Program-made: the position numbers and the translations under genes
Notes under the pieces: generated by a model
The model's database searches: none
What the model was told of the DNA's origin: nothing
The model's input: only the letters and a program-made list of their open reading frames with translations
Shown: in pieces, positions 27,875 through 50,451 of the stretch
Numbering within the stretch: position 1 is the stretch's first letter
Layout: each line of letters opens with the position of its first letter
Sequence record: PQ850618.1
Source: Escherichia phage ManiWeber_Bas99
Length of the DNA stretch: 64,000 bases
Reading direction: 5' to 3' (one strand)

Positions 27875-28519
27875 ATGATTAATGCAAACGTAATATCTAA
27901 AGGGACCGGATGCAGCATGGATGTTGCTGAAAAATGGGTCGACCCCTTCAAGCAGGCTTGTGAGCACTACGGAATCAAAAGCAAGAATGCCATCGCGGCG
28001 CTGCTTGCAAACGTAGGAGTGGAAACAGGCAGTCTGAAGACCTTTGTGGAAAACCTGAATTATTCCGCTCAAGGTCTTGCTAATACGTGGCCTAGCCGTT
28101 ACAGCGCCAGCGGTCGTTTCGGTGGCGCACCAAACTCCTTGGCATTGTCGATTGCCCGTAAACCAATGGAAATCGCCAATAATACATATGCAAACCGAAT
28201 GGGAAATGATTCGGTAGCATCTGGCGACGGTTGGAAGTACCGTGGCCGTGGTGCCATTCAGCTGACTGGAAAGGCTAACTATGCAGAGTATTCAAAACAA
28301 TCAGGGTATGACGCATTGAATAACCCTGACATTTTGACTGAGCCGAAATACATCGCTGACAGCGCGGCGTGGTTCTTCAAGAACAGCGGTTGCATTCCAC
28401 TTGCCGATGCGGGTGCATTTGATTCGACCGTGAAGCGGATTAACGGGGCCGCGCCGAATACGGCCAACCACGGGGATTTGCGACGGAAGCGTTACAAGGA
28501 TGCACTAGCAGTTATGTAA
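27875..28519 (+). CDS. endolysin, glycoside hydrolase family 19-like
   Basis: 214 aa; LANVGVETGSL...VENLNYS...YRGRGAIQLTGKANY fits the GH19 catalytic region. Confidence 0.65.
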   Translation: MINANVISKGTGCSMDVAEKWVDPFKQACEHYGIKSKNAIAALLANVGVETGSLKTFVENLNYSAQGLANTWPSRYSASGRFGGAPNSLALSIARKPMEIANNTYANRMGNDSVASGDGWKYRGRGAIQLTGKANYAEYSKQSGYDALNNPDILTEPKYIADSAAWFFKNSGCIPLADAGAFDSTVKRINGAAPNTANHGDLRRKRYKDALAVM

Positions 28520-28520
28520 G

Positions 28521-28551
28521 AAAAAGGCCCATATGGGCCTTTGTTTATTTT
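28521..28551. terminator. bidirectional rho-independent terminator
   Basis: AAAAAGGCCCATATGGGCCTTTGTTTATTTT: GC stem with A-run upstream and T-run downstream, between convergent genes. Confidence 0.6.
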
Positions 28552-29490: not shown

Positions 29491-30453
29491 TTAAAAATAC
29501 TCCATATCGGTAATATCACGGAAGCATTTATACAAAGCAGAGCGCGGCACGTCGACGATGCCAAAGTTAAAGAATTTATACGTTAGGTATTTATCGCGAT
29601 AGTTCTCGCGATTCTCCCAAAGCATTTTACGCTCTGCCATAGGCATTGAACCAGCGGAGACGCGGAAAGGAATCATTTCACCTTTCTCATCCACATATTT
29701 TGGATTGACGACTACGAATGAGCCAAGGCATCCTTTCGCAACTAAACCTTCAGCCTCTTTTGAACGTTTGGTGCGACCCAATTCGTCAATGAATGCTTCG
29801 TTGTTGTTCTCCATCATCTCAACGAAGTCTATGATCAACCCTTCTTCATCGGTCCACGGCTTGTCCTTCCACACATCACGTGACTTCGGCGTCGCGCGCC
29901 CATGCTTATATTTGCCCGTCCAAGACTTGCCATACAAGCCTTCATATCCAAGCTGGTCTGCTTCGATTTGCATCGCCGCGTACTGTTCCATATTTTCGAT
30001 GTTTCGATATTCGAGAGCGCGAAGGAATGGGCGTCGACCATGGTTGATGAGATGTTGATTAACTTCAGCAACTCTAGCTCGATAGTTTGCATAACGCTTT
30101 TCAAAAGGCAGATCAGGGTCGCTGAAGTCATCAAACACCCACCATGTAAAGTTAGTGATTGCATCAGTATTCATGCATGCAGTATAGGCCTGTTGCATGA
30201 CGTTCTTATCATTTGGATTGCCGTCGATTAGCTCTCCATCAAGTCCGTGAATTAGTTCACCCAAAAAGAGGAACTCTTTTTTGATTTGAACGTTGCGCAA
30301 CGGCATGCCGGAAGTGCCCATTGGCAAGTTGTCATACGCCATTGCACGTATGCCATCGACCTTGAATGACAGTCCGCAAGGCAGCGGCACGTCCTCGCCG
30401 CGCTCGATAATCTGCTTACGTTGGCAACCCTTCATTGGTTTTAATGCTGTCAT
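29491..30453 (-). CDS. ATP-dependent DNA ligase
   Basis: 320 aa; nucleotidyltransferase motif I KVDGIR and DGELIDG. Confidence 0.65.
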   Translation of the reverse strand: MTALKPMKGCQRKQIIERGEDVPLPCGLSFKVDGIRAMAYDNLPMGTSGMPLRNVQIKKEFLFLGELIHGLDGELIDGNPNDKNVMQQAYTACMNTDAITNFTWWVFDDFSDPDLPFEKRYANYRARVAEVNQHLINHGRRPFLRALEYRNIENMEQYAAMQIEADQLGYEGLYGKSWTGKYKHGRATPKSRDVWKDKPWTDEEGLIIDFVEMMENNNEAFIDELGRTKRSKEAEGLVAKGCLGSFVVVNPKYVDEKGEMIPFRVSAGSMPMAERKMLWENRENYRDKYLTYKFFNFGIVDVPRSALYKCFRDITDMEYF

Positions 30454-30455
30454 AA

Positions 30456-31079
30456 TTATTGTCCTGTAACTTCTCTGATCACACGGTCTTCAAGTTCCAG
30501 CTTCTTTACCATTTTGCAGGAGTGCTCATAAGCCTGATCAGTCGATTTGATGAATGTGCCGTTGTACATGACACCTTTTCGGTCTTTAATGTCTTCGTAG
30601 GCAGCTTGCGCACAGTCGGATAAGCGAAGGCCATAATCATGAGCTACGCCGGAAAGGTAATCGACTGCGGCCATGATGGTCACGTCAATATCCATGGTCT
30701 GATTCTTAGCGATTGCATCACCAAGTCGTCCAAGGGTCTTTGCCAGGCGAAGGATAAATGAATGAGGGTGAGCACCTTTATCAGCGCAACCGCCGCCATT
30801 AATGTTTTCGATTTCAGTACCGTTTTGCGCTGCCAGGATGGTCAACACAACAAGGCAATCGCCGATGTCATCCTTAATTGCGGCCTGCAAGTCACAGATG
30901 GCCTGCTCTGTATATCCAATTTCAGGGTCAAAGAACACAAGGTCATGTAATTGATCAACGTGGTCTGTCAACTCCCCAAACTCGCTAATAAGCTTCGGGT
31001 ATTGGTCCTTAAGGTCGCAGCCTTGGATGATGTTACGGTCAGAAGCCCACTGGCGAATGTTTGCATAAATCTGGTTCAT
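30456..31079 (-). CDS. MazG-like nucleotide pyrophosphohydrolase
   Basis: 207 aa; ISEFGELTDHV and DDIGDCLVVLTILAA resemble MazG/HisE acidic helix motifs. Confidence 0.45.
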   Translation of the reverse strand: MNQIYANIRQWASDRNIIQGCDLKDQYPKLISEFGELTDHVDQLHDLVFFDPEIGYTEQAICDLQAAIKDDIGDCLVVLTILAAQNGTEIENINGGGCADKGAHPHSFILRLAKTLGRLGDAIAKNQTMDIDVTIMAAVDYLSGVAHDYGLRLSDCAQAAYEDIKDRKGVMYNGTFIKSTDQAYEHSCKMVKKLELEDRVIREVTGQ

Positions 31080-31594
31080 TTATTTTCCTTTGATGCATTG
31101 AATTGATCGATTTTAATTTTAGCCTGATTATAAGTATCAATCAAGCTATTAACTTTCTCTTTTAATCGATTTGTTTCTGCGGCGAACTGAACAAGAAATC
31201 TGACATCCTCTTCTGATAGTCCACAGTTTCCTTCTGGGATAGAGAGGCGTCCAGTGGTCGCAGAGTCGGGCACACTCCTGAGTAACTCACGGGAGCAGCT
31301 GAGTTGCTCGCGCAACTTGACATTCCCAGACTTGTAACGAGCAATAGTGCCATCAGCAACCAGTTGCGCTTCCTGGCGACCCTTCTCATATGCCGATGCC
31401 GATTCAACCTGTAAAGTTGCAATTTGCTCTTCGAGTGCATTTATCTTGTCCTTACGCTCATTAAGCGATGTCAGATATTGATTATACTTGGCCAGTGATG
31501 CGTTGGTTTGCTGCAGGTCTTCAACGTATGATCCAGCGGCAAACGCGCCAACAAGGGCCAGAATCTTCAGGAGCGGTACAATTCTTTCTATCAT
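31076..31594 (-). CDS. Rz: i-spanin (Rz-like)
   Basis: 172 aa; N-terminal transmembrane segment then coiled-coil region; contains an embedded out-of-frame lipoprotein ORF. Confidence 0.55.
   Translation of the reverse strand: MIERIVPLLKILALVGAFAAGSYVEDLQQTNASLAKYNQYLTSLNERKDKINALEEQIATLQVESASAYEKGRQEAQLVADGTIARYKSGNVKLREQLSCSRELLRSVPDSATTGRLSIPEGNCGLSEEDVRFLVQFAAETNRLKEKVNSLIDTYNQAKIKIDQFNASKENK
31162..31389 (-). CDS. Rz1: o-spanin (Rz1-like) embedded in the i-spanin gene
   Basis: Alternate frame within Rz; MRRVARKRN + hydrophobic stretch + relaxed lipobox GMSS-C, then short Pro-containing mature peptide. Confidence 0.45.
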   Translation of the reverse strand: MRRVARKRNWLLMALLLVTSLGMSSCASNSAAPVSYSGVCPTLRPLDASLSQKETVDYQKRMSDFLFSSPQKQID

Positions 31595-31651
31595 GATGCA
31601 CCAGATAAATAAAAGGCCGCCAATCGGCAGCCTTGTTGATTTGATTGTCGA

Positions 31652-32512
31652 TTAAAACTCTTCTGCGTCGGTCGGAGTTTCATTGACAGGACCAGCGGCA
31701 CCGCTTGCTTCTTCCTGCTTGCTGCGGTCAATGTTAACATTGCCGCCAACTACGTCGTTGTGGAATGCCTTGGCGACTTCGTACAGGCCTTTGTCCTGCA
31801 CCAGACCTTCCAGCTCAAACTTCAGAACAGACCAGGTGTTGCCGTCTTTGGACTGGGATGCAGTGCCCATGCGAACGATGTTCATAAAGGTCGGCGGCGT
31901 TTTCAGACCCTGCGGAGTCTGAACTTTCTTCTGCTGCAGAGCGGTCATCAGCATGCGAGACGGCTTGATCATGGAAGAAGTCAGAGACAGCATTGCGCTA
32001 CCAAATTCACCAGTTTCTTCGTTCAACAGAATTACGAAGTGGTTGCGTGTATCTGCGTAGTAAGGAGATTTCTTCTCGTGCACCTTGCCGTTTTCGTCCG
32101 GCACGAATACCTTACCGTTGATCTCAACAGCGCGGCCTGCTGCGACTTCTGCATCAACGTGCTCTTTGGTGAATTCACCTTTAAAGCCTTTATCGTCGGA
32201 CTCGCGACCGCCCCAAAGAATGAAGGTGCGTTTGAATGCGCAAGGGATGATCTGCACGCCTTTCTTGCCGTCATACAACTCACCAGTAACGGTGTTGTAA
32301 AGCATGCCAGCTTTTGCGCCAGGAACGTGTTTCGGATCATCTTCGTCGACCATAGGAGACATCTTCTGCAGTACGACGATAAAAGGAATGGCATACGCAT
32401 CGGCATCGGCACCTTCAAAACCAGCGCCAAAATCGGTCATGTCGACAAAATCAGCCATAGCGGACATCTGGGTGTTTTTCACTGCAACTTCGGTGGTTTC
32501 TTTCTTAGACAT
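31652..32512 (-). CDS. ssDNA-binding / annealing protein candidate
   Basis: 286 aa; Gly-rich, acidic C-terminal tail ending ...TDAEEF as in T7 gp2.5-type SSBs; in the replication module. Confidence 0.4.
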   Translation of the reverse strand: MSKKETTEVAVKNTQMSAMADFVDMTDFGAGFEGADADAYAIPFIVVLQKMSPMVDEDDPKHVPGAKAGMLYNTVTGELYDGKKGVQIIPCAFKRTFILWGGRESDDKGFKGEFTKEHVDAEVAAGRAVEINGKVFVPDENGKVHEKKSPYYADTRNHFVILLNEETGEFGSAMLSLTSSMIKPSRMLMTALQQKKVQTPQGLKTPPTFMNIVRMGTASQSKDGNTWSVLKFELEGLVQDKGLYEVAKAFHNDVVGGNVNIDRSKQEEASGAAGPVNETPTDAEEF

Positions 32513-32571
32513 TTGATATTTTCCTATAGTATCAAGTTTCGTGGCAACCTGATTTCAAGATAAAGGTTAAA

Positions 32572-33129
32572 TTACTTTTTGCTTTTAGGCAAGGTTATTT
32601 TAGCTTCTTTGTATTCAAAAACGCTAATATCTTCACTAACTGGATTGCCCGCTTCCAGCTGTTCTTTTACAAACGACTTCAGTGTAGCAGAATGAACGCC
32701 TTGTTTCAACGTGGCTTCAACACCATCTTCACGCAGCGCGGCAACAATCTCTTGCGCCTGTTCGATTTCTTCGCGACCGAACTCAGCCGTGACGCTGGAC
32801 TTGATCAAGCCGCCGTAACCGTTGTTGACAAGCCAATCGAAAACTTTTAATTCGTTTTCTTTCTTGATTGAAGCGTTCACCTTGGACTCGACCTTGATTT
32901 TGGTCTTGTCCTCAAGCTTGATTTCGGACACGCCAAGCTCATCCATAACGCCAGGAAGCAGAACAGTTTTGATTTCACTGATTCGCTGCTTTTGCATATC
33001 AGCTTCATCTTCAAGCTCTGTCAAAGCTTCTTGGCGTTCTGCCAGTTCAGATACTAAGCGCGCAAGGCGCTCTTGAATGCTCTCAGGAGCGACCTGCGGC
33101 AAATCATCTTCCCAATTAATATTGCTCAT
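32572..33129 (-). CDS. hypothetical coiled-coil protein
   Basis: 185 aa acidic ORF. Confidence 0.45.
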   Translation of the reverse strand: MSNINWEDDLPQVAPESIQERLARLVSELAERQEALTELEDEADMQKQRISEIKTVLLPGVMDELGVSEIKLEDKTKIKVESKVNASIKKENELKVFDWLVNNGYGGLIKSSVTAEFGREEIEQAQEIVAALREDGVEATLKQGVHSATLKSFVKEQLEAGNPVSEDISVFEYKEAKITLPKSKK

Positions 33130-33464: not shown

Positions 33465-34988
33465 TTAATTCATCTTTTTGCCGTCGAGGATGTGATCAGC
33501 AAGCATAGACTTCATACTTAATGAACGCTGAATTTCTTCGTCGATGGTATCAACACCAATAAAATCAACATACAACACGCTTGATTTTGTGCCGATTCGG
33601 TGATTTCGGTCTTCAGATTGCTTGCGCAACTCGTTGTCATAGTTGCAAGAATAATAGATTGCCAAGTCGGCGGCGGTAAGCGTGATACCGATTCCTGCCG
33701 CTGCAGCGTGACAAACAAGCACTTGCGTCCCACCGTTCTCGACTGTGTTCTTCTGGAAGTCATCAATCAAGAACTCGCGCTGCTCTTTTGACGTCTCACC
33801 GTTATATACACCAGTGACCACTCCTTCAGACTCAAGCCAATCCTTAATCTGGTTCATCTCTTCCTTAAAGATGGCCCAAACAATGAATTTGCGCTCTGGG
33901 TCGTCTTCCAGCACCCCTTCCACATAGTCCTTAAAGGCCGTGAATCGTGGGTTGTCTTCCATGTAGACCATCTCATCATACACCTTAACAAAGCCTGATG
34001 TAACCTGCTTCATCTTAGTGCGAGATGCGATCATCTCAAACTTAACGTTTTCTTCTTCGCCCTTGTATTCCATCAAATAGTTGTACTCATTCTTGAGTTC
34101 ATCGTAGACATCGCGTTGTTTAGGCGACAGCTCGAAGTCGATAAACTTATACACCTTCTCTGGAAGGTCAGGCAAGTATTCCGCTTTTGTCGCACGAAAA
34201 TAGTGCGGTTCCATCAGCCGGATAAGCTTGTCAAGGTTTTTGTACATCGGTCGGCCAAACTGGTCTTTGCGCGGCACTTGCGGAATCCCATAGCCATTGC
34301 CGCCGATTTTCTTGAGGATGGCTTGCATTTCTGGGTCGTGCGCTTCAAGTAGCACAGTGAATTCAGAGTTGAAGGCGCGGAAAGATTTGGTGCCGAGCAA
34401 GCCTGCTTCAAGGAAGTGATATTGCATGTAAATATCCGCAGGCGAGCGCGGCAGCGGCGTGCCAGAAAGGATTCGACGGGCCTTTGCCAGCCGACCCAAT
34501 TCCACGACCTTGATGGAGCGTTTTGCTGTGTTATTTTTGATGCGAGTCGATTCATCAATGATCATCAGGCAGCGGTATTTCTTCAAGACCGACTCGATGT
34601 GTTGATAACCTACTGGTGTGTTGACGGTATCGATGTTGAATGAGAAGATGCGCGCAGGCACTTCGCCTTCAGGGTAGTGATCAGCAAACATCTTCTCCCA
34701 AAGCGCCTTGCCCTTTTTAGTCTTCATCTTGTCGTTGCCGCGCCAGTAGTGCCCAATCCACTTGATGGAAAGGTGTTCTGGTGCTTCACGACGAATCCAG
34801 TTGGAGTGGACACCGTTTGGAGCGATGACGACCATGGCATCGAACGCGCCAGCAGTGAAGTGCTTTTCAAACTCTGCCAAAGCGGTCCAAGTTTTACCAA
34901 GACCCTGTTCCATGAAATAGGCAAAGTATTTTCTGCGGCCTGCTTTATCAAGCGCCAGAAGCTGGTGGCGCATCCCTTGTGTTTTCAT
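33465..34988 (-). CDS. SNF2-family helicase
   Basis: 507 aa; GLGKT Walker A, DExx box LMIIDESTRI, and a C-terminal helicase region. Confidence 0.7.
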   Translation of the reverse strand: MKTQGMRHQLLALDKAGRRKYFAYFMEQGLGKTWTALAEFEKHFTAGAFDAMVVIAPNGVHSNWIRREAPEHLSIKWIGHYWRGNDKMKTKKGKALWEKMFADHYPEGEVPARIFSFNIDTVNTPVGYQHIESVLKKYRCLMIIDESTRIKNNTAKRSIKVVELGRLAKARRILSGTPLPRSPADIYMQYHFLEAGLLGTKSFRAFNSEFTVLLEAHDPEMQAILKKIGGNGYGIPQVPRKDQFGRPMYKNLDKLIRLMEPHYFRATKAEYLPDLPEKVYKFIDFELSPKQRDVYDELKNEYNYLMEYKGEEENVKFEMIASRTKMKQVTSGFVKVYDEMVYMEDNPRFTAFKDYVEGVLEDDPERKFIVWAIFKEEMNQIKDWLESEGVVTGVYNGETSKEQREFLIDDFQKNTVENGGTQVLVCHAAAAGIGITLTAADLAIYYSCNYDNELRKQSEDRNHRIGTKSSVLYVDFIGVDTIDEEIQRSLSMKSMLADHILDGKKMN

Positions 34989-35407
34989 GACAATTCCTCT
35001 AAATACTTGATGATGTGATGGATGGACCCGCTCGCGGCGACCATAGCCAGAATCTCATGCTTAGTATATTCTTTTAATCGCAATGAAGGGTGAACTAAAT
35101 AATAAGCCTTTTCAGAGTCCACCTTCAGCAACACGAATGACGAGAATTTCCAATCACTCCAAGAAGTCAAAAAGCTTTGTTGACCTTTCTCAAATGCGCT
35201 CTTGAAAGGAAGAGTGGTGGCCCTTGCAGGCCACGATTCAAAGAACTTCATTTCAAGCCAAAAGCCGCGCCCTTTCCGGTTGGTGCCGATTACGTCCGGC
35301 ACACCATCACCCGTCATTGATTCGATTCTTTGAAGCTTCAAGATTGATTCTGAATGCTTCTTCAAAGGCACGAATATGTATTTCTGTTCACGGTTATTTG
35401 TTGCCAT
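34985..35407 (-). CDS. VRR-NUC / PD-(D/E)xK nuclease
   Basis: About 140 aa; GVPDVIG...GFWLEMKF gives a D..E.K catalytic arrangement; ATGA overlap with the SNF2 gene. Confidence 0.55.
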   Translation of the reverse strand: MATNNREQKYIFVPLKKHSESILKLQRIESMTGDGVPDVIGTNRKGRGFWLEMKFFESWPARATTLPFKSAFEKGQQSFLTSWSDWKFSSFVLLKVDSEKAYYLVHPSLRLKEYTKHEILAMVAASGSIHHIIKYLEELS

Positions 35408-38291
35408 CTGGATACACCTGTTTGATAACGTCGACGATGAACATGTCAATGCCTTCAAGTTTGCGGCCTTTCATCAGGAAGAATGCGCCGTTCCCGACGT
35501 TCTCTGCAATGTATTTCCCGTATTTCTGGAACTTCTCTGGACGAATCCTGAAGCGCATTGGCGAGTCGGTCGAATCGTCCTTGCACATAAGGTCAATGAA
35601 CTGAGTCTCAAGCTTGTTTCCATACTGGTCAAACTCTGCGTAGCGGCCATCAGCTTGAAGACCCTTTTTAAGTTTGCCGTGCTTTGTATAAATGCCGCGC
35701 TCAAGACGTTTACGGATGCGTGTCGCTTCGTTCTCGTCAGCCAGCACTTTCTTGGTCAACTTGCCGATCACTATTGCACGCTCGTCATCGCCGACTTCCT
35801 TCATCTGGCGTATTGAAGCACCGGAAGTAACGCCAATCAGATAGGGGTCATTATATGCCCATCCGAACTTTGTGTGCATCTCTGTAAGGTCGCCGTATTT
35901 GACTTCAGCATTGGCCAATGCATCCTTTTGCTTTTGCGTTAAGGTTCCGGCTTCACGTGCTTCGATATACTTCATTGCCTTCACCATGCCATATCCTTTT
36001 GCGTTCATGATGCCGCCGATTAGCTTTCCGTTAGCGATGGTCCAGTTCATTGAAGAGTGGTCAGGGTCGATTGGCACATAATCCACGCCTTCCTTCGCAA
36101 GTTCACGTAATATCGCAATCGTCTGGTCTTCGTCCTTAGCAGCGCGTAAGCAGGCAGCGGCAAATTCCAACGGGTAGTGTCGCTTAAGCCACAAGGTCCA
36201 GTAGGTCACGACCGCGTATGATACGGAGTGTGACTTGTTAAAGCCCCATGACCCGAACGTCGCCATCGCTTGCCAAAGCTTTCTTGCATCCGCTTCCGGT
36301 ACGCCGTTATTTATTGCTCCTGCAACGAAGTCTTCGCCAAGCTTGTTAAAGTATTCCTCACCCTTACGACCTGACATCGCCTTACGTACAGCGGATGTTT
36401 TCGCCCAGTCAAATGAACCAATCTCTTTAACCACGGCCATGATTTGCTCTTGGTAAAGAAACACGCCGTAAGTCTCTTTTAAGTACGGCTCAAGCTGCGG
36501 CACGTCGTACTCAATCGGCGCACGTCCTGCCGCGCGTTCAATGTATTTCTGGGCCATACCGGACGACAACGGGCCAGGTCGGCCAAGTGCTGTCAGGTTA
36601 TCGATTTTGTTAAAGTTATCAACGTGCACAAAGTTGGTTACTGAGCGTACAGCGTCGCCTTCAAACTGGAAGATGCCTGACATCTTGTTTTCGTTAAGGA
36701 TGTCAAGGACGCTTTGGTCATCAAGCTTGATTCCGTACAGCGTTTCAGCATCTATCACGCCAGTATCAGAAATGATTCCGAGAGTACGAAGGCCCAGCGC
36801 ATCAAGCTTCAAAAGGTTTAGGTATTCGCTGTCAGGCTTATCGATTTGCGCAATACCTTCTGCAGTTACAGTACAGTAATCAGAGATTGGGTCATTACAC
36901 ACAATGATTCCCGCTGCGTGAACACCTGTGTGAGACGGGTGAATCTCAAGGTCACCCATGCAACGCGCGGCGTCAGGATATTTCGCCACAAACTCTTGGC
37001 CCGTGGTCGTTGTTGCAAAGGTATCCTCCAGGCCGTGACCATAACGGGCGTCACCGGATGAGTATTCAAGCAGTGCGTTTTTAATGTTGGCCGTTTCGTG
37101 GTATCCAATGTTGAACTTCTTACCAACCTGCGCCATTACTGAGTTGGCCTTAAGCGTGTTGATGTTGCCAAGCTTTGCAACGTTCATTTCGCCATATTTC
37201 TCTTTAAGATAATCAAACACCATGTAGCGTTTGGTATCTTCAAAGTCGATGTCGATGTCAGGAAGGTCGGCGCGGCTTACGTCGATGAATCGGGCAAACA
37301 GCAGCTTATACGGGATTGGGTCCACTTCCGTGATGCCGAGGCAATAGCAAACAAGTGAACCAGCCGATGAGCCGCGCGCAGGACCGACGAGCATTTTTGT
37401 TTTTGCGAATCGCACAAGGTCCGCTACCACCAGAAAGTATGAGTCGAAATCTTTCAGCTGAATCTGGTGAATCTCTTCGTTGAAGCGGTCCTCATATTCC
37501 TGAGTCCATTCTTTGATGTGACCTGCTTTTAGACGGTACTCCATCCCCTCACGAGCAAGCTTTACCATGTCACCAGCAAGGTGAATAATCGGTGCCTTAC
37601 GCAATTTCAAGTCAAGTCCGACTATGCCGTTTGCTATGTCAACAGCATTGGCCGTTGCCTGATCAAGTTCATCTTCAGTCAAGATGCCTTTAAGCTGTTT
37701 GCGCAAATCTTCCACGTCAACGATGCAATGCGGCTTGACCGTGTCGCGCACTTCCCAAGCATAAGCAAAGTCAACGTGCTCAGGTGAAGGCATGTGGTTG
37801 TATCCGGTTAAAACCAGCGGCCTTCCACCGCTACGATGAGCCAATGCCTGGCGCTTTGCCAAAAGGAACGATGATGGGTTGACGTCTATATAGTCGTAGT
37901 CCTCTGGCCGCAGCAACTCCACGGCACCGCCACAGAATTTAACGACGCCATCGAGCGCACCGAACTCTGCACGGGTAAGCCCACCGCGCTGCGTTGAAAG
38001 TGTTGTAGCGTTGTAAAAAGATTTTAAGTCAAGGGCCAATATCCAAGCCTTCGGTTTGAATCCCTTTTTCGGGTCCGCATCAGGGTCGATGATTGGAATC
38101 TCCATCCCAAACATAGGCTTAATATCATTTTTCTGGCATTCCTTTTCCCAGCGAACGTGACCCCATGTGTTGTTATCAACTAATGCCGCGACTTCGCAGC
38201 CCAACTCTTTGAGCCGTGCTATAATTTCAGGATGCCGTCCATAAACTTCTTTGAACGTGTAACCGCTGCGAACTCTCAATTGTGGAAACAT
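35394..38291 (-). CDS. dnaE: DNA polymerase III alpha-type (DnaE-like)
   Basis: 965 aa; N-terminal PHP-like region; GPARGSSAGSLVCYCLGITEVDP and DIDIDFE match conserved DnaE motifs. Confidence 0.8.
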   Translation of the reverse strand: MFPQLRVRSGYTFKEVYGRHPEIIARLKELGCEVAALVDNNTWGHVRWEKECQKNDIKPMFGMEIPIIDPDADPKKGFKPKAWILALDLKSFYNATTLSTQRGGLTRAEFGALDGVVKFCGGAVELLRPEDYDYIDVNPSSFLLAKRQALAHRSGGRPLVLTGYNHMPSPEHVDFAYAWEVRDTVKPHCIVDVEDLRKQLKGILTEDELDQATANAVDIANGIVGLDLKLRKAPIIHLAGDMVKLAREGMEYRLKAGHIKEWTQEYEDRFNEEIHQIQLKDFDSYFLVVADLVRFAKTKMLVGPARGSSAGSLVCYCLGITEVDPIPYKLLFARFIDVSRADLPDIDIDFEDTKRYMVFDYLKEKYGEMNVAKLGNINTLKANSVMAQVGKKFNIGYHETANIKNALLEYSSGDARYGHGLEDTFATTTTGQEFVAKYPDAARCMGDLEIHPSHTGVHAAGIIVCNDPISDYCTVTAEGIAQIDKPDSEYLNLLKLDALGLRTLGIISDTGVIDAETLYGIKLDDQSVLDILNENKMSGIFQFEGDAVRSVTNFVHVDNFNKIDNLTALGRPGPLSSGMAQKYIERAAGRAPIEYDVPQLEPYLKETYGVFLYQEQIMAVVKEIGSFDWAKTSAVRKAMSGRKGEEYFNKLGEDFVAGAINNGVPEADARKLWQAMATFGSWGFNKSHSVSYAVVTYWTLWLKRHYPLEFAAACLRAAKDEDQTIAILRELAKEGVDYVPIDPDHSSMNWTIANGKLIGGIMNAKGYGMVKAMKYIEAREAGTLTQKQKDALANAEVKYGDLTEMHTKFGWAYNDPYLIGVTSGASIRQMKEVGDDERAIVIGKLTKKVLADENEATRIRKRLERGIYTKHGKLKKGLQADGRYAEFDQYGNKLETQFIDLMCKDDSTDSPMRFRIRPEKFQKYGKYIAENVGNGAFFLMKGRKLEGIDMFIVDVIKQVYPDGNK

Positions 38292-38887: not shown

Positions 38888-39439
38888 TTATACAGTGTAC
38901 GGAGTACCGTCTTGATTCAACCGCACGATGAATTTAAGGTCGACACCGATGATTTCACGAGTATCAAAGATTACATAGTTGTAACGACGCTGACCAGCAA
39001 TGTTTGGGTTGGTGTGAGAGTCGGTCACAACTTCCTGCGCAACCTGAATGCCTTCTTCTTTAAAGAACTTGCGCCATTCAGCAAGTTCAGCGGCAGTCAC
39101 GTGCATACCAAGATGGCTAACCTGATTGTCGTGCGCATCGATGTATTCGATGTTTTCGTGAATCCAGTTGCAACCTTTTGTATAGTCAAGAATTTCAAGC
39201 TCAAGAGGCTTACCAGCGCCGCCATCGGTGCCGTTGCCAGCCTGATAGTTGAAGCGCAAGTCAGCTTCGTTGGTGCAATCGCCGCGCTGACCCTTAAAGA
39301 CATCAGCTTCAAATACGCGACCAGTAGCAACAACGTGATCATGGAACCATTCTGTCAGGCCGATTTTAGCCAGGAAATTCTGTGCGCGCTGAGCACCTGG
39401 AATTGACAGGGCGATTTGTTCAATTTTAAAATGTGGCAT
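38888..39439 (-). CDS. hypothetical protein
   Basis: 183 aa ORF with no confident motif. Confidence 0.45.
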   Translation of the reverse strand: MPHFKIEQIALSIPGAQRAQNFLAKIGLTEWFHDHVVATGRVFEADVFKGQRGDCTNEADLRFNYQAGNGTDGGAGKPLELEILDYTKGCNWIHENIEYIDAHDNQVSHLGMHVTAAELAEWRKFFKEEGIQVAQEVVTDSHTNPNIAGQRRYNYVIFDTREIIGVDLKFIVRLNQDGTPYTV

Positions 39440-43717: not shown

Positions 43718-44563
43718 TTATTCCGCTTGATCACCGTCTTCAGCATCGTCGTTGGATTCAACATCGACAAACTCGATGTGACCCATCTCTTCCAGCTTGC
43801 TCAGGTAGGAGCGAACGGAAGCGCCAAACAGTTGATCTTTAACTTTTTCGCCCAGCTCATCGATAGACTGTGCCACACCAACTTCGCCTTCTTTGATCGC
43901 CGCCAGAACGCGTCCACGGGTGGAATGCTCTTGCGGCTGGCTCAGGCCGTTGCCAGTGTAGATGAAGTGAGTGGCTTTTGCACGACGCTGACCGTTTGCC
44001 TTTTTAGCAGCCTTACGTTCTGCGATGGCTTTGCGACGTTCTTCAGCTTCTTTCTTACGCTGTTCTTTCTGCTGTTCTGCAGCTTCTTTAGCCGCAATCT
44101 TAGCAGCTTCACGCTCTGCCTTGCGTTTCGCTTTAGCTTCTTCTTTGGCCTTTTCTTTTTCGGCCTTCGCTGCAGCACGGGCTTGATCACGCTCTGCTTT
44201 CTTGGCCGCAGCCTGCTCAGCTTTCAGGCGCTTGGCTTCTTCTTTAGCCTTTGCCTTTTCGATTTCTTTTGCTGCTTTAGCGGCTTCACGCTCTGCTTTC
44301 TTAGCAGCAGCCTTTTCTGCACGCTCTTTAGCTTTCTTAGCTGCTTCTTCAGCACGCTTCTGAGCCTTCTCATCAGCAGCCTGCTTGCGTTTCAACGCAG
44401 CTTCTTCACGCTTGGCTTGTTTTTCCTGCTCACGCTTCTGGCGTTTTTCTTCGGCTTCTTTCTTTTTAGCCAGGCGTTTTTCTTCAGCCACGCGACGACG
44501 TTCTGCTGCGGCTGCTTGTTTTTCTTCTTTAGATAATACTTTGATTGCTTCGGCCATATTCAC
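43718..44563 (-). CDS. Lys/Ala/Glu-rich low-complexity protein with globular acidic C-terminus
   Basis: 281 aa; about 170 aa of KAEREAAKAAKE-type repeats, then a non-repetitive domain ending in an acidic tail. Confidence 0.55.
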   Translation of the reverse strand: MNMAEAIKVLSKEEKQAAAAERRRVAEEKRLAKKKEAEEKRQKREQEKQAKREEAALKRKQAADEKAQKRAEEAAKKAKERAEKAAAKKAEREAAKAAKEIEKAKAKEEAKRLKAEQAAAKKAERDQARAAAKAEKEKAKEEAKAKRKAEREAAKIAAKEAAEQQKEQRKKEAEERRKAIAERKAAKKANGQRRAKATHFIYTGNGLSQPQEHSTRGRVLAAIKEGEVGVAQSIDELGEKVKDQLFGASVRSYLSKLEEMGHIEFVDVESNDDAEDGDQAE

Positions 44564-44716: not shown

Positions 44717-45901
44717 TTAACGCGCTTTCAAATCACGGTACACGGTCAGATTCTTCTTAGCACGGGTGATAGCGGTGTACATCATCTTGGAGTACGGAAC
44801 GCCGCGCAAGATTTCTTCCAGCACGCACACATTGTCCCACTCGCTGCCTTGCGATTTGTGCACCGTGATGACATAGCCGTAGTCCATCCCGCCAACAGCA
44901 CGTTGCGCTTCTTTGCGCACTTCCTGATCAGTAGAGAAGGAAAGAGGATTAATCTTTACCTTTATATCTTTACCATCAGTCAATGAACGCAAGTTGACAT
45001 ACATTATTTCATTCGACTCATCTTCATCCCTTTCAAAGTCCGGCACTGGCTCATAGCTAATAACAATCCCTTGCTCGCCATTACAGAATCCTGGCCCGTG
45101 CTGGTTGAAGGTGCAAATAACTTTCTCGCCGATTCCTGGCATTGGCGTTATACGTCCGCTCACTTGCCGTAATAATGAATTCCATTTATCTTTGGTGCTA
45201 TTATAGGAGCAAATAATTTGATCATCTTCGCCCATGAATTTCTTCAATGCAGTAACGCGCGGCGATTCTGCCAATACTTTGACGTCATCGTATTCACGCG
45301 GAGGAAGGCGGTTGCCTTGGCGCACGAAGAAGGAGGCGCGGATTATATTGGACTCTTTCCCTTGCCGCATGATTTCTGTTAACAGTACGTCAACGGCATC
45401 TTCAGTAAAGTAGGCGGCGGCTTTTACCGGAGGGACTTGTCCAATGTCGCCTAATGCCAGGACAGGGATGCGGTGATCAAGAAGGCGCTCTGTGTCCCAC
45501 TCGCCAACCATCGACGCTTCATCGAGTACAACAAGGTGCGGCCTTTCATCCAGCTTTGACTTTCTCGAAAAGATTGGCTCATTGTCGTCATTTACGCCGC
45601 GCACGTTATAGATGAACTGGTGAAGGGTCTTAGCGCCACGACAGCCTTTTTGCTTTAATCGGCTTGCAGCCTTTCCGGTCGGCGCAATATAGATAGCTCC
45701 ATACTCACCGACACAACGGCGCACAATCTCGCGAGCAATAGAGGTTTTACCAGTTCCTGCATAGCCAGCGATGAAAAACACGCGCTTCGTCGTTTTACCG
45801 TCCTGCAATCGCTTGTACCATGCAACGGCTTTCTCGATGGCGTCGATTTGTTGCGCGTTAAACTGAATCACTGGCTCATCATTAAATTCTGGAATGTTCA
45901 T
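44717..45901 (-). CDS. Dda/RecD-like SF1B DNA helicase
   Basis: 394 aa; Walker A AGYAGTGKTS, Walker B LVVLDEASMV, C-terminal helicase motifs. Confidence 0.7.
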   Translation of the reverse strand: MNIPEFNDEPVIQFNAQQIDAIEKAVAWYKRLQDGKTTKRVFFIAGYAGTGKTSIAREIVRRCVGEYGAIYIAPTGKAASRLKQKGCRGAKTLHQFIYNVRGVNDDNEPIFSRKSKLDERPHLVVLDEASMVGEWDTERLLDHRIPVLALGDIGQVPPVKAAAYFTEDAVDVLLTEIMRQGKESNIIRASFFVRQGNRLPPREYDDVKVLAESPRVTALKKFMGEDDQIICSYNSTKDKWNSLLRQVSGRITPMPGIGEKVICTFNQHGPGFCNGEQGIVISYEPVPDFERDEDESNEIMYVNLRSLTDGKDIKVKINPLSFSTDQEVRKEAQRAVGGMDYGYVITVHKSQGSEWDNVCVLEEILRGVPYSKMMYTAITRAKKNLTVYRDLKAR

Positions 45902-48780: not shown

Positions 48781-50451
48781 ATGTCAATTAATAATGACAA
48801 TCTTCCAGAGGATACAGGTGATGAATTTGGTGCAATCTTTGACGAAATTCAAGATGCAGGCGTTTCGGAAGAAATGCAGGCAGCAGAGCAGCAAGGCACC
48901 AGAGCTAAAATCAGCCTTCAACATAAAGCCGTTGAAAAAGATTCAGAGCGCATGGAATGCTACGGTGAAGAAGACTTGGTTGAAAGAGCACGCTTGCTCG
49001 CCTCACTTCAGGTAATCAAGTTCCCTCACTACAAGCCTACCAAAGATGACTTCGTTCTACAGGCAGACCGGACGAGTGACATGAACCGTTATGCGGTTTT
49101 CGACGCGTTGTTTGATAAGGGAAGTGGCATTGTTCCATTCCCTCACAAAGATACTTTTCGTGGGCGCTTAGTCGACCATCGCGGCGAAACATTCACTGAC
49201 CGTACCTTGGAAGTCACAGAGATAGTTGCCGCTGTCGACGCAGCAGGGCTGTCCAACCCAAACTCACGTCAGGTCGCTCAATCCTATAAGGAATGGGCCA
49301 TGCGTTATCAGCGCGACGACCTGATGGACTTCTTCTACAAGAAGCTGCCTGAATGGGACGGTACTGCGCGCATCGAGAAATACCTTATCGAGCTATTCCG
49401 ACCGTTCGATACAGAGTTAAACCGACGAATCGGTGTGTATTTTTGGCTATCGCTCTATAACCGCCTGACCAACCCTGGCTGTCAAGCGCCAATCTCCATC
49501 GCGCTCATCGGCGGCCAGAACGCAGGGAAGAGTTATTTTAGCAAGCTGCTTTGCGAAGCTATTATGAACGACCGCCACGCAACACCGATTCCGTTGAACT
49601 TAGCCGCGCAAAACTTCAACCCGTTCTTGCGCGCCATCACGGGTCGCTCCATTATCGCGAACGTTGGCGAGATGACAGGCTTTAAAAAGGCTGACATCGA
49701 AAACATGAAAGCATTCCTGACTAAGACGGAAGACGACCTGGACTTCAAATTTGAAGATACACAGGTTAAACCACGCCAGTGGATTGCTATTATGGACGGC
49801 AACGAATACGCAGGCATGCAGCGTGATGACACGGGCAACCGTCGTGTGTATCCTATCTTTGTTGGCCAACTTGCCGACAAGGACGGGCAGCCGAACTGGT
49901 CGAAAGACTTCCAAGCTGACCTTTCCACTTTGAAAGAAGACGTTTGGCAGTTGATGGCTGAGTGCGCTGCGTGGATGGAGAAGCACGGCGAAGCAGGCTA
50001 TAACGCGTTTGTTGGTGAAACATCTCGCATGCTTACTGAGTTCAGTAAAAACGAAATGGAACGCGCTCGCGGCGTTATCCGTGATGAGATGGTTGACAAC
50101 GACCTTGTTGAAGTCGTCATCACCGCGCCTTATGACCGACATCACAGCGGACGCTGGCACATCACCAGTGGTGCTATTGCTATGGGATTCAGAGCGAAGT
50201 GTGGCAAGTCGCCTTTCTCTCGTACCCTTGCGCCACACATGTCGAAGCTTGGTTTTGAGCCTGCAACCTATCGCAACCAGCGCGGTTACTTTACGCCGCT
50301 GATTAAGAATGAAGCAGGAGAATACATTTCTGATTTGATGACCATCTTAGCGTATCTTATTCGCGATGAGTCTGACCCTGAAGATATTGAATTCTTGAAG
50401 AAGGTTATCGAGCGTAAACGTTCTTTGGGAAGAGATAAGGATGAATTCTGA
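48781..50451 (+). CDS. P-loop NTPase, primase-associated helicase candidate
   Basis: 556 aa; Walker A GGQNAGKS; resembles P4-alpha/VirE-type helicase regions (from memory); same operon as the primase. Confidence 0.55.
   Translation: MSINNDNLPEDTGDEFGAIFDEIQDAGVSEEMQAAEQQGTRAKISLQHKAVEKDSERMECYGEEDLVERARLLASLQVIKFPHYKPTKDDFVLQADRTSDMNRYAVFDALFDKGSGIVPFPHKDTFRGRLVDHRGETFTDRTLEVTEIVAAVDAAGLSNPNSRQVAQSYKEWAMRYQRDDLMDFFYKKLPEWDGTARIEKYLIELFRPFDTELNRRIGVYFWLSLYNRLTNPGCQAPISIALIGGQNAGKSYFSKLLCEAIMNDRHATPIPLNLAAQNFNPFLRAITGRSIIANVGEMTGFKKADIENMKAFLTKTEDDLDFKFEDTQVKPRQWIAIMDGNEYAGMQRDDTGNRRVYPIFVGQLADKDGQPNWSKDFQADLSTLKEDVWQLMAECAAWMEKHGEAGYNAFVGETSRMLTEFSKNEMERARGVIRDEMVDNDLVEVVITAPYDRHHSGRWHITSGAIAMGFRAKCGKSPFSRTLAPHMSKLGFEPATYRNQRGYFTPLIKNEAGEYISDLMTILAYLIRDESDPEDIEFLKKVIERKRSLGRDKDEF

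Follow-up and report, generated by a model that had tools for sequence, protein, structure and literature searches.

Relation of gp34 to Known Single-Stranded DNA-Binding Proteins

Among the phage proteins that bind single-stranded DNA (ssDNA), known as SSBs, gp2.5 of T7 and ORF6 of Enc34 are single-chain proteins of a replication module, each with a folded core and a disordered acidic C-terminal segment (PMC5686142). The Enc34 protein had been a "hypothetical" one whose module also encodes a polymerase, a VRR-NUC protein, and a helicase, and this acidic-tailed product proved to be an SSB (PMC5686142). A protein of the same layout, gp34 of Escherichia phage ManiWeber_Bas99, is the subject of this work; it is encoded on the minus strand at 31652–32512 of a stretch of 64,000 nucleotides (nt) from record PQ850618.1, hereafter called the window. 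We consider it probable that gp34 is the phage's own SSB, that it represents a previously unassigned family, Pam3_Gp34, unrelated in sequence to the known SSB families, and that it has a partner, gp33. An SSB-like role is the best fit because the gene is part of a replication module that shows no other recognizable SSB, its codon bias is the strongest of the genome, and many of its relatives end in a ...DDIPF tip.

gp34 shares its terminal Phe with T7 gp2.5, yet it has no sequence, profile, or Foldseek similarity to gp2.5 or to the Enc34 protein, and the gp2.5 tail is far more acidic. It also differs from both in having an extra conserved N-terminal segment and an obligate partner gene. Bacterial SSBs, which consist of an OB core, a linker, and a ...DDDIPF tip, resemble gp34 in this linker-plus-tip layout and in the terminal Phe, and a tip like [DE]x[IVLMA]PF is found in 19 of 142 distant gp34 relatives. 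However, gp34 itself ends in AEEF rather than IPF, and its core comprises ~220 residues, whereas that of bacterial SSBs comprises ~115. T4 gp32 is similar in size (301 versus 286 amino acids (aa)) and likewise shows a basic N-peptide, a core, and an acidic C-terminal region, which is a likeness of layout only; very high expression is expected for both proteins, and the T4 SSB gene lies close to that of a partner, the helicase loader gp59. Yet, gp32 has a Zn-binding OB core (PMC11795197), whereas gp34 has a single Cys and no zinc site, and gp32 lacks a terminal aromatic residue and shows no sequence similarity to gp34. Finally, the Gp3-like proteins described as recombination directionality factor (RDF)/SSB (PhiC31 gp3, TG1 gp25; PF18897) give weak fold matches to gp34, with TM-scores of 0.23–0.34, but they lack the acidic Phe tail and carry a Zn site (PMC11795197). 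The TG1 RDF, a homologue of PhiC31 gp3, binds ssDNA in vitro and has a gp32-like Zn-containing OB fold (PMC11795197).

The gp34 Gene and Its Family

The window genome is that of a Wifcevirus, an E. coli/Shigella myophage akin to the PB1-like Pseudomonas phages, and is 94–97% identical across 6.1 kb to phages WFC, vB_Eco4M-7, FEC19, and Bas98-101. An earlier, sequence-only reading had described a 286-aa product with an acidic tail ending in Phe. This description is confirmed: the open reading frame (ORF) of 286 aa occupies precisely 31652–32512 on the minus strand, with the ATG at 32512 and the stop codon at 31654–31652, and its C-terminus reads ...GPVNETPTDAEEF, the final residues being PTDAEEF. 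Read on the plus strand, the same interval gives a junk translation. The gene and its parts are as follows.

31652–32512, minus strand: gp34-like coding sequence (CDS), candidate ssDNA-binding protein (PF23977 Pam3_Gp34 / phrog_2402)
32471–32512, minus strand: basic low-confidence N-terminal peptide, aa 1–14, MSKKETTEVAVKNT (predicted local distance difference test score, pLDDT, <50 at residues 1–3 and 6–13)
31733–32392, minus strand: predicted folded β-rich core, aa 41–260 (pLDDT mostly >90, DSSP elements, column conservation)
31679–31732, minus strand: variable low-complexity linker, aa 261–278 (column entropy, indels; pLDDT <50 at 273–278)
31655–31678, minus strand: conserved acidic C-terminal tip, aa 279–286, TPTDAEEF (homologue alignment)
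32522–32525, minus strand: Shine–Dalgarno-like AGGA, 9 nt before the gp34 ATG, read from the sequence
31603–31634, minus strand: intrinsic-terminator-like hairpin with a 9-bp stem, 6 GC pairs, and a T-run, 17 nt past the gp34 stop

gp34 matches the Pfam family PF23977 (Pam3_Gp34) over model positions 3–234 of 235 and scores 289.1 bits (cutoff 27), and it matches phrog_2402 with E = 3.6e-105; both lack a functional label. A profile search of 1.84 billion cluster representatives returned 4,798 family members at E ≤ 1e-3 (50%-identity clusters), and 510 of 510 phage records in GenBank that contain a homologue label the gene "hypothetical protein". gp34 had no match in NCBIfam or PADLOC, and PDB sequence searches with gp34 and gp33 were empty or insignificant.

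A panel of 143 diverse Pam3_Gp34 members matched no other Pfam family. Specifically, neither SBB_T7 (PF21265) nor Enc34_ssDNA-bd (PF10991) was matched at E ≤ 0.1 by gp34 or these relatives, and the same members and gp34 gave no Pfam match to bacterial SSB (PF00436) or to the Gp3-like family (PF18897). Searches with phmmer using E. coli SSB, T4 gp32, and T7 gp2.5 found nothing that matches gp34, and the hhalign probability of the gp34 family against T7 gp2.5 was 0.1–0.2%. With Pfam, hhalign, and Foldseek all negative, homology of gp34 to T7 gp2.5 is rejected. Homology to the Gp3-like PhiC31/TG1 RDF-SSB proteins, which weak Foldseek matches had prompted, is likewise unsupported: the profile–profile probability remained below 1% both when the two gp34 alignments were compared with the PhiC31 gp3 sequence and when the diverse one was compared with a 120-sequence Gp3-like alignment. 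The families of single-strand annealing proteins (SSAPs; RecT/Red-beta, Erf, Rad52/Sak, and Sak4) had no Pfam match in the 143 members and were absent from the Foldseek matches.

A Conserved Acidic C-Terminal Tip

The proposal that gp34 has a tail like those of phage and bacterial SSBs is borne out: its acidic tip, closed by an aromatic residue, is strongly conserved. All 119 of the 119 full-length homologues with at least 49% identity have Phe as their last residue. In the alignment, F286 occurs in 109 of 109 homologues, P280, A283, and [ED]284 are also conserved, and the tip of these close homologues reads P-x-[DE]-A-[ED]-x-F over the last eight residues. The tail is only moderately acidic: its final 12 residues carry a net charge of −4 and its final 30 one of −5. 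The linker preceding the tip has the highest column entropy and the indels of the close-homologue alignment, and it is also the lowest-confidence part of the AlphaFold2 model.

This ending extends to distant relatives. Among 142 full-length representatives of 50%-identity clusters, taken from the best 150 of the 4,798 profile matches, 107 end in Phe and 126 in Phe, Met, Tyr, or Leu, and 89% carry a net negative charge over their final 12 residues. Nineteen of them end in [DE]x0-1[IVLMA]PF and nine in [DE][DE][IVL]PF, with tips such as ADDDDIPF, KGDDIPF, and DDDEEIPF; such endings resemble the ...DFDDDIPF tip of E. coli SSB (MG1655 record). Five gene families of these loci (ligase, SNF2, Pol III alpha, MazG, and the phrog_2165 ORF), taken as controls, showed no conserved terminal residue, and gp34 is the sole ORF in the window to combine an acidic tail with an aromatic last residue. 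On these counts, the acidic Phe tip is clearly not a product of chance.

The type of tip varies with the replisome. Where Pol III alpha is present, the ending is almost always A[ED]xF, whereas three loci with a family A polymerase (L064, L076, and L087) have xIPF or xVPF, a correspondence that would be consistent with partner-specific docking and that is confounded by phylogeny. In these three distant loci, gp33–gp34 stands beside family A polymerases, AEP primases (PriCT_1), and UvrD-like helicases in place of Pol III alpha, with tails ending in ...IPF or ...VPF as in bacterial SSB; in L064, the polymerase additionally has an N6/N4 DNA methylase immediately upstream.

Two other products of the window have acidic-then-Phe ends: the ligase (29491–30453, minus strand), which ends in ...DITDMEYF, and the primase-helicase (48781–50451, plus strand), which ends in ...GRDKDEF. 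The ...MEYF terminus of the ligase is not conserved outside the genus, and for the ...KDEF terminus of the primase-helicase the relatives retrieved were all from the same genus. In T7, gp4 and gp2.5 have a common acidic Phe-terminated tail, and the ends of the window ligase, primase-helicase, and gp34 recall these shared replisome tails.

Codon Bias and Expected Abundance

The fraction of E. coli-optimal codons (Fop), calculated with an optimal-codon list from established knowledge, is 0.72 for gp34. This is rank 1 among the 91 ORFs of the window (mean 0.484, standard deviation 0.081), i.e., ~2.9 standard deviations above the mean, and it exceeds the values for the major head protein (0.679) and the tail sheath (0.623). 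By the effective number of codons (ENC), a host-independent measure, gp34 was the most biased conserved gene of the module in 25 of 29 non-redundant loci, versus 5.4 expected. Together with its own Shine–Dalgarno sequence and the downstream hairpin, this bias fits the profile expected from sequence for a stoichiometrically needed protein.

Terminator-like sites were not in excess in the scanned region (3 found versus 3.0 in shuffled sequences); thus, the hairpin call rests on its position and stem quality. The GenBank record of WFC marks terminators in this stretch. A sigma-70-like site at 32547–32518 was not taken as functional, since it overlaps the Shine–Dalgarno sequence and such sites were only slightly in excess (6 found versus 3.1 in shuffled sequences).

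The Replication Module and the Partner Gene gp33

gp34 belongs to a minus-strand operon with the order DEDDh exonuclease, Pol III alpha, phrog_2165 ORF, SNF2, a 106-aa ORF, gp33, and gp34; beyond gp34, it continues with the Rz/Rz1 spanins, MazG, and an ATP-dependent ligase. The genes upstream of gp34 that bear on its role are the following.

32572–33129, minus strand: gp33-like partner CDS, 185 aa, PF23984 DUF7307 / phrog_2378 (Pfam and PHROG matches)
33465–34988, minus strand: SNF2-family helicase (Pfam SNF2-rel_dom and Helicase_C)
34985–35458, minus strand: 157-aa SNF2-associated ORF, phrog_2165 "DNA helicase" (PHROG E = 1e-33)
35394–38291, minus strand: phage DNA polymerase III alpha-type polymerase (annotation in relatives)

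The context was compared across 80 IMG/VR loci with 31–100% identity, in 79 of which the gp34 ORF was recovered. In 77 of these 79, gp34 is directly preceded on its own strand by a gp33-like gene, mostly with a gap of −4 to +90 nt, and the two exceptions are contig ends; the same adjacency occurs in phage Pam3 (gp33, gp34). Of the other module genes, SNF2 has an upstream homologue in 57 loci, while the phrog_2165 ORF is represented in 43 and Pol III alpha in 36. Twenty distant loci lack Pol III alpha and have UvrD-type helicases, AEP/RepB primases, family A polymerases, and MazG as neighbors, and none of SSB, gp2.5, DUF669, RecT, and Erf is among the 25 most frequent neighbor families of those 20 loci. 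Since the gp33–gp34 pair is found with either Pol III alpha or family A polymerases, it is a polymerase-agnostic cassette.

The AlphaFold2 model of gp33 (pLDDT 77.9) has a long helix at residues 18–65, a small α/β domain, and a basic C-terminus, and it has no fold match in the PDB. The basic tail of gp33 reads ...AKITLPKSKK and is Lys-terminal in 52 of 67 orthologues. Set against the acidic tail of gp34, this sequence suggests a possible electrostatic contact, either tail to tail or tail to core.

Search for Another SSB

The complete annotation of Bas100 lists a polymerase, an exonuclease, primases, three helicases, a ligase, thymidylate synthase, and polynucleotide kinase; it contains no SSB and no recombinase. 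E. coli SSB, T4 gp32, T7 gp2.5, and a Gp3-like hidden Markov model found nothing at E ≤ 10 in all ORFs of the window and the 80 loci. Two ORFs with strong codon bias, 43718–44563 and 38888–39439, were considered as rival SSBs and set aside, as neither has an SSB-like tail.

Predicted Fold and Conserved Residues

The AlphaFold2 model of gp34, built on 109 sequences, has a mean pLDDT of 87.7 and a predicted TM-score (pTM) of 0.80, with residues ~41–260 mostly above 90. It predicts a single compact β-rich core with four helices of at least eight residues, a low-confidence N-terminus, and a disordered linker preceding the tip. A Foldseek search of the PDB with this model returned nothing at E ≤ 0.001, and all TM-scores were ≤0.28; the structures of T7 gp2.5, Enc34 ORF6, and gp32 (1GPC) were absent from the matches. 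As modeled, the core therefore appears to be an orphan fold lacking a recognizable relative of known structure.

The weak top matches in the PDB included RPA, two bacterial SSBs, PhiC31 gp3, and Whirly, a list that is enriched in SSBs and not significant. PhiC31 gp3 (9teh_I) had the highest probability among the PDB matches (0.54), with TM-scores of 0.23/0.28 and E = 0.07, whereas Whirly also stood at only rank 50 with E = 0.56. In BFVD, 28 matches were obtained at E ≤ 0.001, nearly all of them uncharacterized phage proteins; weaker entries named SSB/RDF, from actinophages, had E values of 1.5e-4 to 7e-3 and TM-scores of 0.26–0.34. These SSB-enriched structural neighbors of the model are suggestive, not significant. 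The predicted order of secondary-structure elements is compatible with β1-β2-β3-α-β4-β5. A fold prediction had been put forward as the check on an OB fold, and its outcome is divided: the weak matches are enriched in OB-fold SSBs, but none reaches E ≤ 0.001 and the TM-scores stay at or below 0.28, so that the model neither confirms nor excludes an OB fold.

Other folds were considered. Three β-β-β-β-α repeats of the PC4/Whirly/Pur-alpha type, read from the DSSP string, were dropped because hhalign between the segments was empty. Ku-like, sliding-clamp, and SSAP folds, considered given the nearby ligase and Pol III alpha, were absent from the Foldseek output, and the gp33–gp34 pair also occurs with family A polymerases.

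Conserved core positions in the 143 diverse sequences are F/Y93, R95, F/Y97, W100, R103, D154-T-R-x-H158, F209, and W227, together with the stretch S-T-Q-I-K-K-S-K (179–186), which includes K183 and K/R186. From their conservation, the aromatic and basic residues among them are candidate ssDNA contacts. A basic N-terminus is a family-wide feature: 129 of the 143 sequences have a Lys or Arg in the first six residues, and 105 have at least two in the first eight. The N-peptide may thus be analogous to the basic N-terminal segment of T4 gp32 (MFKRKST...).

The Case for an SSB and Its Implications

The sequence-only reading had called gp34 SSB-like and placed it with gp2.5. The first part is supported by the genomic context, the codon bias, and the fit of the tip, whereas the gp2.5-type kinship fails by Pfam, by hhalign (<1%), and by Foldseek.

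Several observations weigh against assigning gp34 as an SSB. The sequence and profile tests against gp2.5, gp32, bacterial SSB, and Gp3-like proteins are all negative, and Foldseek against the PDB demonstrated neither an OB fold nor another SSB fold. The core is not basic, with a net charge of 0 (family average ~−1.8), and classical SSB tails are far more acidic than that of gp34; T7 gp2.5, for example, ends in ...DEESWDEDDEESEEADEDGDF. E33, S52, D154, T155, H158, S179, and S185 are almost invariant, and polar residues conserved to this degree would be expected in an enzyme or a specific interface more than in a generic SSB; rather than contacting ssDNA, some of them could belong to an active site or to a surface that binds protein. 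SSBs do not usually come with an obligate partner gene, and the link between tip type and replisome loses force through its phylogenetic confounding. In addition, a literature search turned up no functional or experimental report on any Pam3_Gp34 member.

The conserved tail, the family assignment, the replication-module setting, the obligate gene pairing, the extreme codon bias, and the lack of another recognizable SSB are observations; ssDNA binding, contacts with partners, and a role for gp33 are what we infer, and they may be combined as follows. gp34 would be made in very large amounts from the replication operon, and its β-rich core would coat ssDNA via the conserved aromatic and basic side chains. 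As in T4 gp32 and T7 gp2.5, the basic N-peptide and the acidic C-terminal region may tune how, or how cooperatively, the protein binds. The flexible linker would display the ...P-x-D-A-E-E-F tip, whose terminal Phe would dock on replisome partners, in ManiWeber_Bas99 probably its own Pol III alpha, primase-helicase, or helicases; for the relatives with a ...DDIPF tip, the partners are probably host SSB-interacting proteins. gp34 would act together with gp33 (DUF7307), which could be a loader, a mediator, or a co-factor.

A broader proposal is more tentative, and we regard it as possible rather than likely. Pam3_Gp34 might be a very widespread, unrecognized class of ssDNA-binding proteins with a core absent from solved structures and perhaps not of the OB type, forming an obligate unit with gp33 and working independently of the polymerase type. 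Its tip might have diversified between mimicry of the host SSB (...DDIPF) and a phage-specific form (...AEEF), thereby rewiring the recruitment of replisome and repair proteins. On this proposal, Pam3_Gp34 would be the missing SSB of the Pbunavirus therapy phages and of thousands of others.

The family spans the PB1-like Pbunavirus therapy phages and the very fast-replicating Wifcevirus phages. If gp34 is an SSB, one assignment would annotate ~4,800 clusters (50% identity) as well as the gene in 510 sequenced phages that is now "hypothetical". It would also represent an SSB class that has an obligate partner protein and lacks a detectable link to the known OB-fold families of SSBs, and its host-like and phage-specific tip variants would form a natural series for the choice of partners by SSB tails. 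Phage SSBs are reported to trigger bacterial defense systems such as retron Eco8 (PMC13402713); identifying the SSB of these phages therefore matters for predicting how phages and defenses interact.

Alternative Explanations

gp34 and gp33 may instead form a recombination module, i.e., a new SSAP/mediator pair serving recombination-dependent replication, with the tail recruiting a nuclease or helicase. As in phage recombination modules, an obligate two-gene cassette lies beside a SNF2 helicase and an ORF with a PD-(D/E)xK motif. The recombinase slot is also empty, since no RecT, Erf, Rad52, or Sak4 is annotated in the genome or among the 25 commonest neighbor families. However, gp34 has no sequence or fold similarity to any SSAP family, and a codon bias that tops the genome fits a stoichiometric coat protein better. 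SSAPs bind SSB tails and are not known to carry them, which also counts against this explanation. In its favor, T7 gp2.5 unites SSB and annealing activities (RefSeq annotation). We regard it as unlikely, while noting that it is compatible with the SSB assignment and that the two are not mutually exclusive.

It is rather improbable that gp34 is an abundant interaction hub or decoy, whose SSB-like tip would capture the binders of SSB tails, in host repair and replication or in the phage replisome, without its core coating ssDNA. The many relatives with an exact bacterial-type ...DDIPF tip would suit such a role, as would a core that is not basic, near-invariant polar residues suggestive of specific interfaces, and the lack of a demonstrable OB fold. 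Yet, the AEEF tip of ManiWeber_Bas99 differs from the DDIPF of E. coli SSB, which makes host mimicry unlikely in this phage; moreover, a position in replication modules with two polymerase families points to a core replication role, and the conserved aromatic and basic positions fit nucleic-acid binding.

A comparably small chance is given to another replication accessory or enzyme, such as a replisome organizer, a helicase loader, or a protein with a catalytic D154-T-R-x-H158/E33/S52 cluster, for which the Phe tip would serve as a tether. While the invariant polar residues, the orphan fold, and the obligate partner agree with this explanation, enzymes and loaders are needed in catalytic amounts, whereas the codon bias of gp34 tops that of the capsid and sheath genes; furthermore, Pfam, NCBIfam, PADLOC, and the PDB gave no similarity to any enzyme.

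The idea of the sequence-only reading that gp34 is a T7 gp2.5-type SSB enlarged into an SSB-annealase hybrid was prompted by an acidic tail ending in Phe and a chain that is indeed longer than gp2.5 (286 versus 232 aa), but it is very improbable, as gp34 has no SBB_T7 or Enc34_ssDNA-bd match, an hhalign probability of 0.1–0.2%, Foldseek matches that lack gp2.5 and Enc34, a single compact core (pTM 0.80), and no match to any annealase family. The extra length is a conserved N-terminal segment plus a larger core: neither the compact model nor hhalign between segments revealed a second module or an internal repeat.

Other Genes of the Window

Apart from the probable SSB gene, several ORFs of the window deserve mention. 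The ORF at 43718–44563 (minus strand; phrog_4765) encodes 281 aa that consist mostly of K/A/E-rich histone-H1-like repeats, with a net charge of +17; its C-terminal globular part is small and its end, ...SNDDAEDGDQAE, is acidic. It has no Pfam or NCBIfam match. Its Fop of 0.719 is the second highest in the window, and it adjoins a Dda-like helicase (44717–45901). By its sequence, the product could be an abundant DNA-coating or nucleoid-remodeling protein. The ORF at 38888–39439 (minus strand), just downstream of the exonuclease gene in the same operon as gp34, encodes an acidic protein of 183 aa (net −9) that ranks 4 of 91 for optimal codons and has no Pfam or PHROG match; it would be a further abundant product of the replication region.

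The phrog_2165 ORF (34985–35458, minus strand), located between Pol III alpha and SNF2, measures ~140–157 aa, and it has no Pfam match at E ≤ 0.1 and no NCBIfam match. It contains the motif GVPD...WLEMKF, which is PD-(D/E)xK-like; from this PD...E-x-K motif alone, it looks like a misnamed VRR-NUC-type nuclease.

Lastly, an Rz-like i-spanin (31076–31594, minus strand) with an embedded Rz1-type o-spanin (31162–31440, minus strand) lies within the replication operon between gp34 and MazG. These spanin genes are ~2.5 kb from, and on the opposite strand to, the endolysin position annotated in relatives (27882–28526 of Bas100). The lysis cassette is split here, which is an unusual arrangement.

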